A stretch of DNA of 4,612 nt from a virus (lineage: Duplodnaviria; Heunggongvirae; Uroviricota; Caudoviricetes), in IMG/VR virus record IMGVR_UViG_2693429700_000015. One strand, given 5' to 3'. The translations under genes were made by a program, and so were the position numbers. Position 1 is the first letter of the stretch. Each line of letters opens with the position of its first letter. The notes beneath the pieces were generated by a model. It ran no database searches. It saw nothing but the letters and a program-made list of their open reading frames with translations, and had not been told where the DNA came from. This document shows, in pieces, positions 1 to 4,612 of the stretch.

Positions 1-87
1 CTGTGAGTCATATTCATCCTGACTTTCCAGAACCATACGAATCGCCCGCTGACGGACTTCGGGGGAAAAACGAGTATTTTTAGTCAT
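1..87 (-). CDS. IS3-family transposase OrfA, N-terminal part (partial, runs off window start)
   Basis: Reverse-strand translation from the ATG at 87-85 gives [29 protein letters not shown]..., which matches the N-terminal helix-turn-helix region of IS3-family OrfA proteins as I remember them. Not in the ORF track because it is cut by the window edge. Confidence 0.8.
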
Positions 88-141
88 CCTGTTTACCTCT
101 TTCTCAGGGAGTTTAGTCTCCAGGATTTCCGGGGCGGTTCA
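1..141 (-). mobile_element. IS3-family insertion sequence, left end (terminal inverted repeat plus start of orfA); element continues beyond the window start
   Basis: Reverse complement of 88-141 reads TGAACCGCCCCGGAAATCCTGGAGACTAAACTCCCTGAGAAAGAGGTAAACAGG followed by ATG: a TGA-starting terminus typical of IS3-family ends, running straight into a transposase orfA start. From memory this resembles IS629/IS1203-like elements; not verified. The element boundary (TG terminus) is at position 141. Confidence 0.8.
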
Positions 142-576
142 TACGTCAGCAAAATAGCGGAAAAGGCCGGGGACTCTCCAGCCAAGTTCATCACTGAAGT
201 TAATAAGCTGAAATCTCAGTCAGGCGGTGAAATTTACAACACTATTTTTTCTGGAAAGCACATGAAAGAGCTTGATGCTCTTCATGAAGTTCTACAGCAA
301 ACAGCAAGGTCAGACACCGCAAATGTAGTAACTCAGACGGGGCAATTGCAAGCCAACAGGATAAGGACGATTGGCGCAACTGCGACCCTTGGTGTATCAC
401 TGGGACTTGAGGCTGGTTTCGGTGCAATCATGCGCTTGTATGAGTCCAAAGCAGCAAGGAATGCTCTCTTACGTCTGGCAAACACCAAAGCAGGAACGCC
501 AGCCTATGAAAGAGCGTTAAGTAACGCTGCAAATGCCGTCAGGCCGCTGTTTGCTACTGAGGCAACACGGCAGTAA
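142..576 (+). pseudogene. 3' fragment of a gene apparently truncated by the IS insertion; product unknown
   Basis: The reading frame of track ORF 262..576 stays open with no stop codon all the way back to the IS boundary at 142 (40 further codons: [47 protein letters not shown]...). No convincing Shine-Dalgarno precedes the ATG at 262. Consistent with the C-terminal 144 codons of a longer gene whose 5' part was separated by the IS. Product not recognised. Confidence 0.45.
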
Positions 577-600
577 CGTATGGGAAATTGGATTCAATCG

Positions 601-990
601 CTAACATTTTCTTTTTACTTTTCCAACAAAAGCTTTGGTTGAATCCATATTTCCATAACCGGAAATGGTTTTTGACATTAAAACTGTTCCAGTAGGATGT
701 ATTACCCATGAGTCGATAACGCGTTGAGTTTCGCCATTCGCGCCGATTCCTATGATGGAGTTTTTAGACAATTCTTTGTAAGCCATGCCGCCCGCATCTG
801 TCCCAGAATATGTGATGCTGGCATCTTCACCGCTTGTCTTAATGATGAATGTTCCACTAAAACCATCTTCTTCCGGATGGAAATTATTTCGCTCTGAATA
901 GCTTATTCCGCGCATATCTCCAACGACCCAGCACTCTGCTGTAGCCCCAAAAGATATGAATAAGAACATAGCAGCAAGAAATTGCTTCAC
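601..990 (-). CDS. hypothetical secreted/periplasmic protein with Sec-type signal peptide
   Basis: 129-aa ORF with GTG start at 990-988 preceded by a strong Shine-Dalgarno (GGAGG at 1000-996, 5-nt spacer). The N-terminus MKQFLAAMFLFISFGATA-E has a basic residue, a hydrophobic core and an A-x-A cleavage motif. The mature protein has one Cys near its N-terminus and one at the extreme C-terminus. Family not recognised. Confidence 0.6.
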   Translation of the reverse strand: MKQFLAAMFLFISFGATAECWVVGDMRGISYSERNNFHPEEDGFSGTFIIKTSGEDASITYSGTDAGGMAYKELSKNSIIGIGANGETQRVIDSWVIHPTGTVLMSKTISGYGNMDSTKAFVGKVKRKC

Positions 991-1052
991 ACCAACCTCC
1001 TTAGTTTTGAGCAGGATACCAGATGATACTTTATTGGTGGAGTGGTGTGTGA

Positions 1053-1227
1053 AAACGTGTCAACGACAAACCATCCACAACTTGGACGAATGATTTAGCA
1101 AAAAGTGCTATTTTTGGTGTTTGGTGTCATAGAAACGTGAATAGCTTACTTTTCAACATTGCATGAAACTTGCAGGAAATGTGACATTACCTTATAGGTA
1201 ACTTCGGCGAAAATGCAGTAAATGTGA
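1053..1227 (+). repeat. recurring AAANGTG(A) motif, at least 5 copies, in the divergent intergenic region
   Basis: AAACGTG at 1053-1059, AAAAGTG at 1101-1107, AAACGTGA at 1133-1140, AAATGTGA at 1177-1184, AAATGTGA at 1220-1227. The last three are spaced 44 and 43 bp apart. Far more copies than expected by chance for a 6-specified-base motif in about 350 bp. Confidence 0.35.
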
Positions 1228-1364
1228 AACGTAATGGTTTAAACATGTCGCTAAAGTGGTTGTAAGTTAGCCTCCGAAGGATTGCTGATAGCTTTGTTAT
1301 AGTATTAAATGACATTTGACATAGTTGGATACTTAGCTGCGGCTATCAAGATGGAGGTATGTTT

Positions 1365-1808
1365 ATGCTCACTTGTTTTGATGTCGCCGACTACTTCTTG
1401 GCGCATTGCGATGAAGAAAGTGGCGACATTATCTCTAACCTAAAAATTCAGAAGTTGACGTATTATGCCCAAGGGTTTTCTCTGGTTCTTCTGGGTAAGC
1501 CGCTATTTAATGAGAAAATTGAAGCCTGGATGCATGGGCCAGTAGTTCCTGAATTGTATCGTAAATATAGGGACTGTGGTAACGGCGCTTTACCTGCGCC
1601 AGAAAACTTTGACGCTAAAAAATTCAGTGAAGATGAAATTGAATTGCTGGATGAGGTGTATAAAGTTTATGGTCAGTTTTCTGCCTGGAAACTGCGCAAT
1701 ATGACTCACGAAGAGCAGCCATGGAAAGATGCTTACATTGAGGGTGCGGTTAGCCAAGAAATCACACTTGATTCTATGAAAGGTTTTTTCAAAACGTTAA
1801 TTAACTGA
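1365..1808 (+). CDS. Panacea-domain (DUF4065; GepA/SocA-like) protein, putative antitoxin of a PanA/PanT-type module
   Basis: The segment KIQKLTYYAQGFSLVLLGKPLFNEKIEAWMHGPVVPELY matches the conserved core of DUF4065/Panacea proteins as I remember it (KLQKL-Y-AQ ... PLF-E-AW-HGPV). Start chosen at ATG 1365 (GGAGG at 1353-1357, 7-nt spacer) rather than the track ATG at 1359, which is only 1 nt after the Shine-Dalgarno. A TTGACA hexamer lies at 1316-1321 inside a tandem TGACAT-T-TGACAT, about 45 bp upstream. Confidence 0.75.
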   Translation: MLTCFDVADYFLAHCDEESGDIISNLKIQKLTYYAQGFSLVLLGKPLFNEKIEAWMHGPVVPELYRKYRDCGNGALPAPENFDAKKFSEDEIELLDEVYKVYGQFSAWKLRNMTHEEQPWKDAYIEGAVSQEITLDSMKGFFKTLIN

Positions 1809-1813
1809 CGTGT

Positions 1814-2236
1814 ATGTCTAGAGTTAAGGGAAGAATAAAACAGAGGGATAAAGAGAGCTCTGCTACTGTTGGCCTCTCTATCCATCACGAATCTCATGAT
1901 GTAGACAAAAGTCCGCCTGTATTTTCTCTTAGATACCTACAAAAGGGGTATTGCCTAGATTGCTGCCAAAAGCATGAAAAGGCAGCATTTGCAGATAGGC
2001 TGTTCAGGTTAAGTCAGATGTCATGGGATGAGATACGAAAATCTGATAAACACGGGCTTGGGACGGAAAAAATTGCCAGAAACGCGATAAAGGCTCCGAT
2101 TCCTAAGCATGTTACTCAAGATGTGGATTTCATTGCGTTCAGATTTTGCTCTAAGGCACCTATGGTTGGTTATAAGATAGGAGCCACTTTTTATGTCTTA
2201 TGGCTCGACAGGGAGTTCAAGCTATACAAGCACTAA
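1814..2236 (+). CDS. hypothetical protein; candidate toxin partner of the upstream Panacea-domain protein (family not recognised)
   Basis: 140-aa ORF starting 5 nt after the Panacea gene stop (operon arrangement) and ending at a strong terminator. No Shine-Dalgarno at the 1814 ATG, so translation would need coupling; an alternative internal start at ATG 2018 (AGGT 8 nt upstream) would give 73 aa. Basic N-terminus, Cys cluster (CLDCCQKH), C-terminus GYKIGATFYVLWLDREFKLYKH. No family recognised from memory. Confidence 0.5.
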   Translation: MSRVKGRIKQRDKESSATVGLSIHHESHDVDKSPPVFSLRYLQKGYCLDCCQKHEKAAFADRLFRLSQMSWDEIRKSDKHGLGTEKIARNAIKAPIPKHVTQDVDFIAFRFCSKAPMVGYKIGATFYVLWLDREFKLYKH

Positions 2237-2237
2237 T

Positions 2238-2263
2238 AAAACCCACCGTCAGGTGGGTTTTTT
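2238..2263. terminator. bidirectional rho-independent terminator shared by convergent genes
   Basis: AAAACCCACC (2238-2247), loop GTCA, GGTGGGTTTT (2252-2261), T-run to 2263: a GC-rich 7-10 bp stem flanked by an A-run upstream and T-run downstream. It sits between the stop of the + strand ORF (2236) and the stop of the - strand ORF (2280). Confidence 0.75.
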
Positions 2264-2279
2264 GTTGGAGATAAAATGG

Positions 2280-2483
2280 TTAACCAAATCGATCCTTAAA
2301 GCGTCTATCGCTGTTGCGTCTCTCCATTTTACTGTTGCAGTACGGACAAAGATGCTGTTTCTTTCCATCGATAGTCCATGTGAAGTACTTTTTCTTAAAT
2401 CCAGCACCACAGATATCGCAACTTCTTGGTTTAAACATGCTGGCTATGAAGACAAGAACAACAAATCCTATGATCCATTCCAT
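2280..2483 (-). CDS. small membrane-anchored zinc-ribbon protein (67 aa), function unknown
   Basis: N-terminal hydrophobic helix (EWIIGFVVLVFIASMF) followed by CxxC...(17 residues)...CxxC (CDICGAG...CPYCNS) and a basic tail. Ends at the bidirectional terminator. Shine-Dalgarno is weak (ACAGG about 10 nt upstream). Confidence 0.5.
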   Translation of the reverse strand: MEWIIGFVVLVFIASMFKPRSCDICGAGFKKKYFTWTIDGKKQHLCPYCNSKMERRNSDRRFKDRFG

Positions 2484-2624
2484 ATCATGTACCTGTTTTA
2501 ACTTTATTTTTTGTTTTTTAGGGATTAATCAGAAACTTTATCTTGCGATTAAGCAAAGCTACTAGCTAACAAAAGAGTGCGTATACAATCAATCGTTTCA
2601 CATCAACCTCAACAAGGAGAAATC

Positions 2625-2810
2625 ATGACCATAGAAGAACGCCTGAACAACATTGAGTTGAACCAAACCCTGCTTGACCAGCGACTTTCAGATCTTGAGC
2701 TTAAAGATCTTGATGCGCAAATATCAGAAGCAGAAGCCAAGCTCTCCAGCCTAAACCACCGCAAGAAGCAAATCCGCAACAGAATTACTCAGGGACGCGG
2801 AAGCTGTTGA
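2625..2810 (+). CDS. small coiled-coil-like hypothetical protein (61 aa)
   Basis: ATG at 2625 preceded by a strong Shine-Dalgarno AAGGAG (2614-2619, 5-nt spacer). Sequence MTIEERLNNIELNQTLLDQRLSDLELKDLDAQISEAEAKLSSLNHRKKQIRNRI has heptad-like Leu/Ile spacing. A TACAAT -10-like hexamer lies at 2584-2589. The track ORF start at 2577 (GTG) lacks a Shine-Dalgarno and would contain this promoter-like element. Confidence 0.5.
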   Translation: MTIEERLNNIELNQTLLDQRLSDLELKDLDAQISEAEAKLSSLNHRKKQIRNRITQGRGSC

Positions 2811-2994
2811 GGTGGGATGCTAGGTCTCTATCGTTAAAATCAAGGCTGCTAATCATTTCATTGTAAATGGCGTTTTTATCTTCCATTGGCAGTCTTGAGT
2901 AAACCAGACACAGAGCATATTTCAGGGAGTTTAGCTCTTTCTCTAGCTCTTCCTTGCTTGACGTTTTTGACTTAATAAACTGTTTTTTATTCAT
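2785..2994 (-). CDS. hypothetical protein (69 aa) translationally coupled to mnt
   Basis: Its start ATG (2994-2992) overlaps the mnt stop in an ATGA arrangement, with AAGGA about 6 nt upstream inside the mnt 3' end. Hydrophilic, no transmembrane segment, family not recognised. Its 3' end overlaps the convergent 2625..2810 ORF by 26 nt. Confidence 0.5.
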   Translation of the reverse strand: MNKKQFIKSKTSSKEELEKELNSLKYALCLVYSRLPMEDKNAIYNEMISSLDFNDRDLASHLNSFRVPE

Positions 2995-3239
2995 TTTGCA
3001 TCCTTACCATACATGGTTTTCAGTGTTTCAAGCAGCGCCTCTTTGAATTTGTCAGCTTCTTGCTGAGCAAATGACTCAACTGACTTTGGCGACCTATCTT
3101 CATCAATCGCGGCTTGCAAAATCATGACGATCTCGGAGTTAACAGAGCGACCATTTTTTGATGCTCTGACAGCAAGAGCCTCGCGCAAAGATTCAGGGAT
3201 TCTTACCGTAGTTGGAGAAATTGACACACCCTTTGCCAT
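2991..3239 (-). CDS. mnt: Mnt-like ribbon-helix-helix repressor (immI region)
   Basis: 82 aa. TTVRIPESLREALAVRASKNGRSVNSEIVMILQAAI is an Arc/MetJ-type RHH motif (beta-strand, G-R-S-x-N-S-E helix). Length and C-terminal helix (FKEALLETLKTMYGK) parallel phage P22 Mnt (83 aa, C-terminus ...VFDTLKDLYKK) as I recall it. Transcribed divergently from the arc-ant pair, as in P22 immI. Confidence 0.8.
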   Translation of the reverse strand: MAKGVSISPTTVRIPESLREALAVRASKNGRSVNSEIVMILQAAIDEDRSPKSVESFAQQEADKFKEALLETLKTMYGKDAK

Positions 3240-3259
3240 AGCACACCTTTGGTATTCAA

Positions 3260-3271
3260 TTTGATATCAAA
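3260..3271. promoter_or_regulatory. 12-bp perfect palindrome TTTGATATCAAA in the mnt/arc divergent control region; candidate operator
   Basis: Perfect dyad symmetry, located 21 bp upstream of the mnt start codon in the 114-bp region separating two RHH repressor genes. RHH dimers and tetramers bind symmetric operators. Confidence 0.4.
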
Positions 3272-3288
3272 GTGTATGCAAAAGAAAT

Positions 3289-3317
3289 TTGACTAGATAT
3301 ACTCACTTTGCTATCTT
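3289..3317 (+). promoter_or_regulatory. putative sigma70 promoter for arc-ant (Pant-like)
   Basis: TTGACT (3289-3294), 17-bp spacer, TATCTT (3312-3317), about 35 bp upstream of the arc Shine-Dalgarno GGAGGG (3344-3349). The spacer contains CTAGATATACTCAC, a possible repressor binding region. Hexamer match is moderate. Confidence 0.35.
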
Positions 3318-3353
3318 TTGTATTCGAAAAGAGTCGTTTGTGCGGAGGGTAAC

Positions 3354-3506
3354 ATGGAGAAAGAAATAAGTAAGATTTTGGTAAGGATGCCGCAGTCGTT
3401 AAAGGACGCTATCGGTAGCAGGGCAAAGGAAGAATGCCGGTCGTTTAACTCGGAAGTGATTAAGCGGTTGATAGACAGCCTGAAGAGAGAGGGGATAACG
3501 GTGTGA
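3354..3506 (+). CDS. arc: Arc-like ribbon-helix-helix repressor
   Basis: 50 aa. ILVRMPQSLKDAIGSRAKEECRSFNSEVIKRLIDSLKREG aligns motif-for-motif with P22 Arc (FNLRWPREVLDLVRKVAEENGRSVNSEIYQRVMESFKKEG) as I recall it. Start at ATG 3354 with GGAGGG 4 nt upstream; the track TTG start at 3318 is rejected. Confidence 0.8.
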   Translation: MEKEISKILVRMPQSLKDAIGSRAKEECRSFNSEVIKRLIDSLKREGITV

Positions 3507-3738
3507 TTCGCTTGGATGCAGTAGTCAAAGAGATTGCGATTACCATTTTAAGACCAAATTTTGTTCATGGCGAATCATTTGGCACGAACGAAAAATTGAG
3601 AAGAGAAAGAGTATTCAGTGGCAAGCGCACATTTTCAGAAGTGATGCTTGATGCGGCAAAGAAATCAAAACAGTGAAGCCCCAACTGCGGTAACAGTCAG
3701 GGCTTCGGTTGTCGGTAAATTCGTGGAGAAAAACCAAC

Positions 3739-4533
3739 ATGAATAGTATAGCAATTTTAGAAGCAGTGAACACCTCTTACGTACCATTCAACGGTCAGCA
3801 AATTATCACCGCCATGGCTGCCGGAGTTGCATATGTTGCGATGAAGCCAATCGTTGAAAACCTTGGAATGAGCTGGTCAACGCAGCAAACAAAACTCATG
3901 AAGCAGATTAGCAAATTCAACTGTGTTCATATGAACATGGTTGCCGCTGATGGGAAGCTTCGTAAGCTACTCTGCCTTCCTTTGAAGAAGTTAAATGGAT
4001 GGCTGTTCAGCATCAACCCCGAGAAAGTTCGAGCTGACATCCGCGATAAACTGATTCAGTACCAGGAAGAATGCTTTACTGTACTGCATGACTACTGGAC
4101 AAAGGGAAAGGCAGAAAATGCACGTAAGAAAACATCTGTTGATGACAGGACTCCGCTTCGTGATGCTGTAAATATGCTAGTCAGCAAAAAGCATCTAATG
4201 TACCCAGAAGCTTATGCAATGATTCATCAGCGTTTCAATGTGGAAAGTATTGAAGAGCTTGATGCATCTCAGATACCGCAAGCCGTAGAGTACATCCACA
4301 GGGTAGTGCTTGAAGGTGAGTTCATCGGCAAACAAGAGAAGAAGCCCAACGGGCTTTCCGCAAAAGAAACAGACATCCTTGTATGGCTGTGGGATTATGC
4401 CAACCGCTCACAGGCATTATTCCGCGAACTGTATCCGGCGCTGAAACAAATTCAATCGAACTATTCCGGCAGATGTCATGACTGCGGTTATGAGTTCTCC
4501 CGTATTATCTGTATTAGCTCAGACCTGATCTGA
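3739..4533 (+). CDS. ant: phage antirepressor (P22 Ant-like, N-terminal P22_AR_N-type domain)
   Basis: [21 protein letters not shown]...[12 protein letters not shown]...[27 protein letters not shown]...[16 protein letters not shown] matches the conserved N-terminal domain of P22-type antirepressors as I remember it. It lies downstream of arc in the same orientation, as in immI. Start taken as ATG 3739 (GGAG at 3725-3728) rather than the track TTG at 3709. Confidence 0.75.
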
Positions 4534-4568
4534 CAGTTACCGGTTATTTATACAGGTATCTGTCAGAT
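4528..4568. other. imperfect inverted repeat immediately after ant stop; possible terminator or regulatory hairpin
   Basis: ATCTGACAGTTACC (4528-4541) and GGTATCTGTCAGAT (4555-4568) are reverse complements at 13 of 14 positions, separated by a 13-nt AT-rich spacer. A second small hairpin CAGAT-TAC-ATCTG (4564-4576) follows, and a T-run sits at 4584-4589. The T-run is not directly adjacent to the stem, so terminator function is uncertain. Confidence 0.3.
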
Positions 4569-4612
4569 TACATCTGGCTTAAATTTTTCTCGGCCCAGAT
4601 GCGCTTTCCATC

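Follow-up and report, generated by a model that had tools for sequence, protein, structure and literature searches.

A P22-type immI cassette in the ant moron of an apparently defective P22-like prophage

The stretch of DNA analysed here (the window, 4,612 nucleotides) is one draft contig of 4.6 kb with IS repeats at both ends, and its positions 2991-4533 are a P22-type secondary-immunity cassette made up of mnt, arc, the sar RNA and ant. The DNA is very probably the immI cassette of a P22-like (Lederbergvirus-type) prophage, carried in the ant moron and expected to work in a P22-like manner, in a copy that is decaying. Nucleotide matches of 95-99% suggest that the host is Escherichia/Shigella. 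As a first-pass annotation of the same DNA had stated, the system is a known one: immI and the ant moron have been described, including in the APEC O1 prophage type (PMC2629481), and immI/ant moron are also treated in PMC8022706.

Results

Divergent repressor genes, sar and ant reproduce the gene order of P22 immI

The cassette and the gene directly behind mnt comprise the following features:

2785-2994, minus strand: orf69, 69 aa, directly downstream of mnt (phrog_16466, 4.6e-51)
2991-3239, minus strand: mnt, 82 aa, Mnt-type ribbon-helix-helix (RHH) maintenance repressor
3354-3506, plus strand: arc, 50 aa, Arc-type RHH repressor, first gene of the rightward operon
3503-3676, plus strand: orf57, small basic ORF of 57 aa (phrog_17642, 1.3e-43)
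3672-3738, minus strand: sar, gene of an RNA antisense to the leader and the ribosome-binding site of ant
3739-4509, plus strand: native part of ant, codons 1-257 of a 300-codon P22-type antirepressor gene
3745-3773, minus strand: Psar, inside the 5' end of ant, with -35 GTGTTC, 17 nt and TGc-TATACT (hexamers read from the sequence)

The first-pass annotation had proposed a leftward Mnt-like and a rightward Arc-like RHH repressor in divergent orientation, followed by an antirepressor, in the gene order and orientation of P22 immI. The coordinates were exact and the scores of all three proteins lay far beyond chance, the order and orientation of P22 are reproduced, and all three proteins showed significant similarity to their P22 counterparts on alignment. 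The Mnt-like protein (Pfam Arc, 9.6e-11) is 36% identical to P22 Mnt over 74 aa (E 7e-14, residues 11-79); its best PDB match is the Mnt repressor structure 1MNT, aligned over residues 12-73 and hence well past the RHH domain, and its C-terminal extension can be aligned with the C-terminal region of P22 Mnt. The Arc-like protein (Pfam Arc, 5.5e-12) is 39% identical to P22 Arc (E 9e-10), has Arc structures among its PDB matches, and its ATG at 3354 is preceded by a strong Shine-Dalgarno sequence, GGAGG, at 3345-3349. The G-R-S-x-N-S-E signature that had been ascribed to both repressors is present in the Mnt-like protein (G-R-S-V-N-S-E), but the Arc-like protein reads C-R-S-F-N-S-E. The start of orf69 overlaps the stop of mnt (ATGA), which makes co-transcription and translational coupling of the two genes probable. 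Similarly, the GTG start of orf57 overlaps the stop of arc (GTGTGA).

The sar gene was recovered at full length by Rfam RF00262 (model positions 1-68; 87.1 bits against a gathering score of 43, E 3.9e-18). Its fold has an energy of -31.1 kcal/mol (z -6.1), its terminator hairpin (3675-3706) is invariant in six modules, and the Psar stretch has the same sequence as the annotated Psar of Salmonella phage epsilon34. The placement of ant downstream of arc was correct insofar as both belong to the same operon, but the two genes do not adjoin, since orf57 and the sar gene lie between them. The earlier annotation had overlooked sar and orf57, as well as the C-R-S motif of the Arc-like protein and the truncation of ant described below; the second IS insertion and the low identity of Mnt and Arc to their P22 counterparts (36-39%) had likewise gone unremarked.

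Could the two RHH genes instead encode antitoxins or partition/centromere-binding proteins that lie next to ant by coincidence? The top PHROG name of both is 'partition protein ATPase', they show weaker Pfam matches to the FitA-like and HicB antitoxin RHH families, and a PanA-type toxin-antitoxin pair is located nearby. However, the structure matches are to Mnt, as far as residue 73, and to Arc; no toxin or ParA gene follows either RHH gene; and sar, Psar and ant are arranged as in P22, with a promoter spacer identical to Oarc at 14 of 19 positions. This reading is thus exceedingly improbable, and as no RHH protein of 82 aa can be an ATPase, the PHROG name is an annotation-transfer error.

IS elements interrupt ant and gene 16

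The ends of the window contain:

1-141, minus strand: terminal part of an IS3-family (IS1203/IS629-like) element, with the N-terminus of the orfA transposase at 87-1 and an inverted repeat that ends at 141 (...GGGGCGGTTCA)
142-576, plus strand: C-terminal 144 codons of a gp16-family DNA-ejection gene, the 5' part being cut off by the IS
4510-4612, minus strand: end of an IS481-family element, with the inverted repeat TGTATTAGCTCAGACC... from 4510 and the transposase C-terminus and stop at 4612-4568

Ant contains P22_AR_N (2.2e-45) and P22_AR_C (3.3e-20) and is 81% identical to P22 Ant (E 4e-168); a PDB sequence search with Ant gave no match. The claim of an antirepressor with a P22-type N-terminal domain thus held for the domain but not for an intact gene, as the ant ORF is cut by an IS. 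The truncated ORF (3739-4533, plus strand) encodes 264 aa, in which P22_AR_C is cut at profile position 63 of 73, and full-length ant (~300 codons) is absent from the window; Ant has 300 aa both in the prophage of E. coli S88 and in a sibling contig, IMGVR_UViG_2675903654_000024 (hereafter L013). Comparison with the intact ant of EC.P3 and L013 set the boundary between ant and IS481, and positions 4510-4533 are seven foreign codons and a stop derived from the inverted repeat of the IS481-family element. A point nonsense mutation in ant was also considered, given that BLASTP paired residues 258-264 (CISSDLI) with GIARDVL of P22; this pairing is due to chance, and the reading was rejected because the DNA shows that codons 258-264 are IS sequence. 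Removal of the last 43 codons may abolish the function of Ant.

At the left end, positions 1-141 are ~96% identical to IS1203-family copies, and beyond 141 the flanking sequence differed between all contexts compared. A boundary at 160-165, taken from IS1203 matches in E. coli, was spurious, as direct alignment placed the divergence of the flanks after 141. The gp16 frame is open from 142, PF26808 is listed for its product, and the fragment is 78% identical to residues 466-609 of P22 gp16 and 92% identical to gp16 of phage vB_SemP_Emek (Emek). At the right end, 4510-4612 is 99% identical to IS481-family copies. The junction between ant and IS481 had no exact match in GTDB species-representative genomes and was found in no complete E. 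coli genome.

As the window is an entire, short draft contig that ends in repeats on either side, and the sibling contig carries the sequence uninterrupted, one might suppose that the IS at the contig ends are assembly mis-joins and that immI is intact and working in an inducible P22-like prophage. However, each junction falls within the contig and coincides exactly with the terminal inverted repeat of its IS element. The 264-aa truncated Ant is also encoded in an independent assembly, the Logan assembly of run ERR134522; moreover, assemblers break at repeats and normally create no exact joins of inverted repeat to target. We therefore consider mis-joining highly improbable. The two insertions, in gene 16 and in ant, place the module in what is, to judge from the DNA, a defective prophage: with gene 16 split by the IS1203-like element, it would yield no infectious particles unless complemented.

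The divergent control region resembles that of P22 with different candidate operators

The region between mnt and arc holds a predicted promoter and three symmetric sites:

3240-3353, no strand assigned: divergent control region between mnt and arc
3260-3271: symmetric site 1, TTTGATATCAAA
3289-3317: Pant-like promoter, TTGACT (3289-3294), 17 nt, TGc-TATCTT (3312-3317)
3295-3316: symmetric site 2, AGATA-N12-TATCT, in the promoter spacer (Oarc position)
3314-3332: symmetric site 3, TCTTTTGTATTCGAAAAGA, immediately past the -10 (Omnt-like position)

In a consensus scan the Pant-like promoter scored 9/12 plus TG, and the 14/19 identity of its spacer to P22 Oarc occurs at the same offset. The symmetric sites are putative operators for Arc and Mnt. 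The P22 Omnt (AGGTCCACGGTGGACCT) is absent here and a different palindrome lies nearer the -10, the centre of the candidate Omnt being ~9 bp nearer the -10 than in P22; furthermore, the mnt-arc intergenic region measures 114 bp compared to 90 bp in P22 and has an extra upstream palindrome. In both repressors residues of the DNA-contacting N-terminal strand differ from those of P22, and with an identity to P22 Mnt and Arc of only 36-39% their operator specificity probably differs as well, which would make the cassette heteroimmune relative to P22.

No candidate for Pmnt passed the consensus scan of the region, and those picked by eye were weak, so none was assigned. A 12-mer, CACTTTGMTATC, occurs three times, always within the mnt-arc intergenic region; its count alone is not significant, since 14 of 200 shuffles reached three matches in the whole window. 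As a separate observation, the repressor classes in IMG/VR differ in their symmetric sites, which occupy the same three positions in each class.

The module belongs to a variant common in E. coli prophages, 'class W', with a third symmetric site upstream of Pant and an obligatory slot for a small ORF, translationally coupled to arc. That slot, between arc and sar, is occupied here by orf57, whose product is identical at the amino acid level in S88 and DE17 (100%) and nearly so in phiv205-1 (98%), and a slot survey showed that it holds unrelated ORFs in sibling modules. Single-sequence AlphaFold2 modelling of orf57 gave a mean pLDDT of 57 and three weak helices, a model of insufficient quality for fold searching. 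It is doubtful that the third site and the arc-coupled slot add a level of antirepressor control not described so far, perhaps tied to proteolysis, in which orf57 would be a new regulator. At sibling loci, the slot was seen to contain ClpX-zinc-finger-like mini-proteins, often accompanied by a ClpP homologue encoded behind mnt; searching the literature for antirepressor modules with ClpX zinc-finger proteins returned nothing relevant.

Accessory genes fill the slot between gene 16 and mnt

The 2.4 kb that separate gp16 from mnt are the 'ant moron' slot of the literature, the site of sieA in P22 (PMC2629481). Besides orf69, it contains:

601-990, minus strand: 129-aa accessory gene with an N-terminal signal-peptide-like segment (phrog_2651, 9.5e-60)
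988-1021, no strand assigned: conserved 34-bp cassette, upstream of the first leftward moron gene
1359-1808, plus strand: panA, 149 aa, putative antitoxin with a SocA/Panacea domain
1814-2236, plus strand: PanA partner, 140 aa (phrog_8366, 1.3e-75)
~2238-2262: hairpin-plus-T-run terminator after the 140-aa gene
2280-2483, minus strand: 67-aa accessory ORF with a hydrophobic N-terminus and a CxxC...CxxC zinc-ribbon-like motif
2625-2810, plus strand: 61-aa accessory ORF, coiled-coil-like (phrog_7586, 3.3e-44)

The genes upstream of the cassette had been proposed to occupy the slot of sieA-type accessory genes. This was right for the position between gp16 and mnt, but none of the accessory genes is homologous to sieA. 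The 129-aa gene has the position and orientation of P22 sieA and is 99% identical to Emek orf129; its product gave E 1.1 against P22 SieA, showing no homology, and position alone is common to the two. By tblastn, the accessory ORFs of the window had no match in the P22 region. The 34-bp cassette recurs at 97-100% identity in P22, where it precedes sieA, and in epsilon34, where it precedes gene 14, although the genes that adjoin it are unrelated.

PanA matched Pfam SocA_Panacea (2.2e-24) and NCBIfam SocA_antitoxin (6.5e-17, under the cut-off of that family). The 140-aa ORF is co-directional with panA and starts 6 nt past its stop codon, so that a PanAT-type layout is present, with a Panacea/DUF4065-domain panA and an adjoining partner gene. 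Across loci the two proteins co-vary, with identities of 100%/100% (PanA/partner) in EC.P3 and 70%/57% in Emek and DE17. The partner is a candidate toxin. It matched NsnC (1.8e-7) and MAG6450 (1.9e-5, below the cut-off) weakly and had no Pfam or PDB match; PADLOC made no defence-system assignment apart from the weak NsnC match. Emek annotates a terminator at the position equivalent to that behind the 140-aa gene. The remaining ORFs are also closely conserved elsewhere: the 67-aa ORF, with weak zinc-ribbon Pfam matches only, is 98.5% identical in the ETEC4085 prophage, whereas the 61-aa ORF and orf69 are 100% and 98.6% identical to Emek orf61 and orf69, respectively.

The module is a mosaic found in P22-like prophages of E. 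coli

Compared to P22 immI, the window has the same gene order, orientation and protein families, sar with Psar, a predicted homologous Pant with an Oarc-like spacer, and the same site to the right of gene 16. It differs from P22 in the ORF between arc and sar, in the IS-cut ant and in having no homologues of sieA or orf59a. The sar-ant part is 84-97% P22/epsilon34-like. In epsilon34, where sar, Psar and arcO are annotated, sar-ant is 96.6% identical to the window; in contrast, Mnt and Arc of epsilon34 are of the P22 type, and its arc and sar are not separated by an ORF. With Emek the window has in common the end of gp16, the 129-aa gene, orf61, orf69 and the presence of an ORF between arc and ant. 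What sets Emek apart is a different Mnt, an Arc of the P22 type, an unrelated ORF of 73 aa and an Ant whose N-terminus is of the KilA-N type.

The whole stretch from mnt through arc, orf57 and sar to ant occurs at ~96% nucleotide identity in 76 complete E. coli genomes, including the prophages of S88, APEC O1 (the 'APEC-1' of Villafane et al. 2008, PMC2629481) and ATCC 11775, and in phage phiv205-1. In complete E. coli genomes the module is located between the gp16 and tailspike genes of argW-integrated P22-like prophages. In the prophages named above the surroundings can be seen in full, with gp16, the moron, ant, the tailspike and integrase genes and tRNA-Arg. They differ from the window in their intact ant (300 aa) and in the gp16-mnt genes: S88 has a toxin pair of the YafO family and, behind mnt, a gene of the ClpP family instead of the PanA pair and orf69. 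L013 differs from the window by a single base over 494-4509 (4015 of 4016 nt identical, 99.98%), and in it a full-length ant without IS is followed by a terminator and then by a tailspike gene (Pfam Head_binding, 5.5e-65, the P22 head-binding domain). The P22-like prophage context that had been predicted, with ejection-protein and tailspike genes on the flanks, is thus borne out: the late-operon location between gene 16 and the tailspike gene is seen on the left as the gp16 fragment in the window itself, and on the right in L013 and S88.

Selection might have kept the copy as a functional remnant, in which Mnt, orf69 and the PanA pair protect the host against superinfection by P22-like phages with the same Pant/operator type, or cause abortive infection, truncation of Ant being neutral or favourable. 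Differences from the S88 copy are mostly synonymous (8 synonymous and 2 non-synonymous codon changes in mnt, 9 and 1 in arc), the accessory ORFs are intact and identical or nearly so to those of viable phages, and P22 mnt is described as expressed from the prophage (PMC2629481). However, with only 1 nt of difference to L013 in 4 kb, the insertions are too recent for retention of these genes to bear on selection, and we regard host-driven retention as unlikely. A recently interrupted, decaying immI cassette remains the preferred interpretation.

Discussion

By homology with P22, the cassette would work as follows. Mnt made by the prophage would bind an operator at the start of Pant and thereby keep arc-ant silent. 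Upon infection or derepression Pant would fire, and Arc would then bind in the promoter spacer and shut Pant down. The sar RNA, transcribed from Psar inside ant, would pair with the ribosome-binding site of ant, and Ant, if made, would bind and inactivate the primary (c2-type) repressor. Decay of this copy consists in the removal of the last 43 ant codons by the IS481-family element and the splitting of gene 16 by the IS1203-like element.

The module itself advances no open question, and the main value of the analysis is one of annotation: the contig is recognised as an ant-moron fragment of a defective P22-like prophage, the misleading database name 'partition protein ATPase' is corrected for both RHH proteins, and the 2.4 kb upstream are marked as a cargo slot with a PanA-type toxin-antitoxin candidate. 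For researchers interested in antirepressor control, the class-specific operator sets and the swapped small ORFs between arc and sar may serve as modest leads.

The window carries a P22-type immI module

The window is identical to the entire draft contig CYAS01000125.1 (assembly GCA_001283645.1; 4612 bp), and the Logan assembly of run ERR134522 holds nearly the same contig. Its genes were mapped from an ORF listing and family scans.

Features of the window
1-141: IS end, IS3-family, IS1203/IS629-like; transposase orfA N-terminus on the - strand
142-576, +: gp16 C-terminal fragment
577-2990: six small accessory ORFs
2991-3239, -: mnt
3240-3353: control region, 114 bp
3354-3506, +: arc
3503-3676, +: orf57, 57 aa (phrog_17642, 1.3e-43)
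3672-3738, -: sar (Rfam, 87.1 bits)
3739-4533, +: ant ORF
4510-4612: second IS end, IS481-family

With an IS1203/IS629-like end at its start and an IS481-family end at its finish, the window is thus a draft contig with repeats at both ends.

The first-pass annotation had read 2991-4533 as a P22-type immI region, and the ends of this interval coincide with the stop codons of mnt and ant. Each of the three proteins aligned significantly to its proposed P22 counterpart. The 82-aa protein matched Pfam Arc (9.6e-11) and P22 Mnt (36% identity over residues 11-79, E 7e-14), with the Mnt repressor 1MNT as its best solved-structure match; the 50-aa protein matched Pfam Arc (5.5e-12), P22 Arc (39% identity, E 9e-10) and PDB Arc entries; and the 264-aa antirepressor matched P22_AR_N (2.2e-45), P22_AR_C (3.3e-20) and P22 Ant (81% identity, E 4e-168). 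The gene order and orientation of P22 are likewise reproduced. The G-R-S-x-N-S-E signature ascribed to both repressors is present in Mnt (NGRSVNSE), whereas in the Arc-like protein C replaces the G (ECRSFNSE). Compared with E. coli S88, synonymous differences outnumber non-synonymous ones in both mnt (8:2) and arc (9:1).

The families that include Mnt and Arc, phrog_2685 and phrog_795, carry the label 'partition protein ATPase', which is a propagated annotation error. The same label has been copied onto mnt in the RefSeq records of phages Emek, epsilon34 and UPF_BP1.

The small RNA gene sar is full length at 3672-3738(-) (gathering score 43, E 3.9e-18) and its predicted fold (-31.1 kcal/mol, z -6.1) has both of the hairpins expected; the Psar stretch annotated in epsilon34 is identical in the window. 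Thus, the module has each of the four classical components of immI. It shows the sequence-testable hallmarks of P22 immI, with candidate sites for Pant and its operators; the exception is ant, which is not intact. Near-identical modules are present in annotated genomes already published, as well as in phage phiv205-1, so the module is already known.

The biology of P22 immI is summarised in PMC2629481 and PMC8022706, and the steps for the window module are taken from P22. Mnt made by the prophage would repress Pant; upon infection, Pant would transcribe arc-(orf57)-ant, and Arc would then shut off Pant. In addition, sar would block translation of ant, and Ant would inactivate the primary repressor.

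Candidate operators are specific to each Mnt/Arc class

The control region contains a Pant-like promoter at 3289-3317 (TTGACT, 17 nt, TGc-TATCTT), whose spacer is identical to P22 Oarc at 14 of 19 positions at the same offset and includes AGATA/TATCT arms (3295-3316). A 19-bp palindrome, TCTTTTGTATTCGAAAAGA (3314-3332), occupies the place of P22 Omnt but lies ~9 bp nearer the -10, and a third palindrome, TTTGATATCAAA (3260-3271), is without P22 counterpart. No Pmnt was detected by a promoter consensus scan. In IMG/VR, Mnt relatives can be sorted by their N-terminal strand into classes, each with its own divergent Arc. The classes share a promoter scaffold (...CAAAAAAATTTTGACT-17-TAnnnT...), but the symmetric sequences at three fixed positions on it are particular to each class (the window and loci L047-L058). 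Such class-specific sites on a common scaffold support these positions as candidate operators and support the window class being heteroimmune to P22 immI. In the L049 class the N-terminal strands of Mnt and Arc are nearly the same (RDISPLGIRIP and RDIAPLGIRIP), and the half-site GTGTAG is repeated at all sites.

The slot between arc and sar is exchanged among loci

With its start overlapping the stop codon of arc (GTGTGA), orf57 extends to the base of the sar terminator, and E. coli S88 carries it at 100% identity. A small ORF occupies this slot in all 34 loci with the E. coli immI variant of the window and in L047, extending from 4 nt ahead of the arc stop to the sar hairpin. The content of the slot is swapped, with at least six unrelated types across loci L013-L047: orf57, Cys-rich ORFs of 60, 61, 63 and 67 aa, and a membrane ORF of 89 aa. 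The 60-aa ORF matches Pfam zf-C4_ClpX (7.6e-11).

Directly behind mnt, S88 encodes a 178-aa ClpP-family protein (8463-8999 of its locus; Pfam CLP_protease 2.2e-11); the S88, DE17 and EC.P3 modules have a ClpP-family protein here, whereas the window has orf69. The ClpP-family gene behind mnt and the ClpX-zinc-finger mini-ORFs behind arc in sibling modules hint at a link to proteolysis, which to our knowledge is not known from P22 work.

The repressor and ant parts of the mosaic meet at the sar terminator hairpin (GAAGCCCCAACTGCGGTAACAGTCAGGGCTTC, 3675-3706, 32 nt), and the P22-like stretch starts exactly there. As the hairpin is essentially invariant in six modules (one loop position varies) whose flanks can be unrelated on both sides, it is a likely recombination joint. 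The window is mosaic, its closest relatives differing segment by segment.

Closest relatives by segment
146-1746, gp16 end to PanA: Emek, 89%
981-2263, PanA and orf140: EC.P3, 98%
982-2816, PanA region through orf61: ETEC4085 prophage, 98%
2614-3013, orf61 and orf69: Emek, 97%
2993-3506, mnt and arc: EC.P3, 95%
3674-4499, sar and ant: epsilon34, 96.6%; P22, 83%

The gp16-mnt slot carries unrelated accessory genes

The upstream genes had been proposed to occupy the sieA slot of P22. The gene of a 129-aa secreted-type protein does match sieA in position and orientation, but the protein is unrelated to SieA, and the P22 and epsilon34 morons contain no homologue of any of the six accessory ORFs. 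Downstream of the gene for a PanA/Panacea (SocA-domain) antitoxin (within 1359-2262; 2.2e-24) comes orf140, beginning 6 nt past the PanA stop, and then a terminator. This 140-aa partner is without Pfam or PDB match, and its matches to NsnC and MAG6450 are weak. Between prophages the two genes vary together (versions at 100%/100% and at about 70%/57%), and they look like a PanAT toxin-antitoxin or defence cargo of the ant moron, with the partner as candidate toxin. PanA neutralises diverse, often prophage-borne toxins (PMC8832971). The slot also holds a 67-aa zinc-ribbon-like ORF (2280-2483, -; hydrophobic N-terminus, CDIC...CPYC) with weak family matches that is 98.5% conserved in the ETEC4085 prophage, the 61-aa orf61, and the 69-aa orf69, coupled to mnt by an ATGA overlap.

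A 34-bp cassette, CACACCAACCTCCTTAGTTTTGAGCAGGATACCA (988-1021), holds the ribosome-binding site of the first leftward moron gene and is 97-100% conserved before sieA in P22 and before gene 14 in epsilon34; the genes it serves are unrelated. The slot behaves like the 'ant moron' of PMC2629481, where ten types are described from sixteen genomes, the APEC O1 prophage among them.

Two IS elements interrupt the prophage

The placement in a P22-like prophage was borne out by the gp16 fragment left of the module and by a tailspike gene right of ant in the sibling contig L013 (IMGVR_UViG_2675903654_000024). The mnt-arc-orf57-sar-ant module occurs at ~96% identity in 76 complete E. coli genomes, including S88, APEC O1 and ATCC 11775, and the S88 P22-like prophage reads gp4, gp10, ..., gp16, moron, ant, tailspike, integrase, tRNA-Arg.

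Phage genes 16 and ant are interrupted by two different IS elements. Comparison with other copies set the IS1203/IS629-like boundary at 141, and the open frame from 142 comprises 144 codons corresponding to P22 gp16 residues 466-609 (78% identity; Emek gp16, 92%), so gene 16, which encodes an ejection protein, is split. Set against intact ant genes, the native part of ant stops at 4509 (codon 257), and an IS481-family terminal inverted repeat from 4510, 99% identical to E. coli copies, adds 7 foreign codons and a stop. Because of this truncation, the P22_AR_C match ends at profile position 63 of 73. The 43 missing residues are nearly invariant across Ant proteins with completely different N-terminal domains, which suggests that the truncated Ant may be impaired. 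The ant::IS481 junction was absent from the complete E. coli genomes searched and from GTDB representatives. L013 is identical to window 494-4509 at 4015 of 4016 bases, and next to its 300-codon ant stands a tailspike gene that encodes the P22 head-binding domain (5.5e-65); the insertion in ant is therefore recent, and the tailspike gene lay right of ant. The element thus counts as a defective prophage or a prophage remnant: ant is truncated, an IS lies between ant and tailspike, and gene 16 is split. The ORFs of mnt, arc and the accessory genes, as well as sar, are still intact. Altogether, the module is a routine prophage landmark; of added value are its IS-mediated decay and, as side leads from sibling loci, the class-specific sets of candidate operators and the swap slot between arc and sar.
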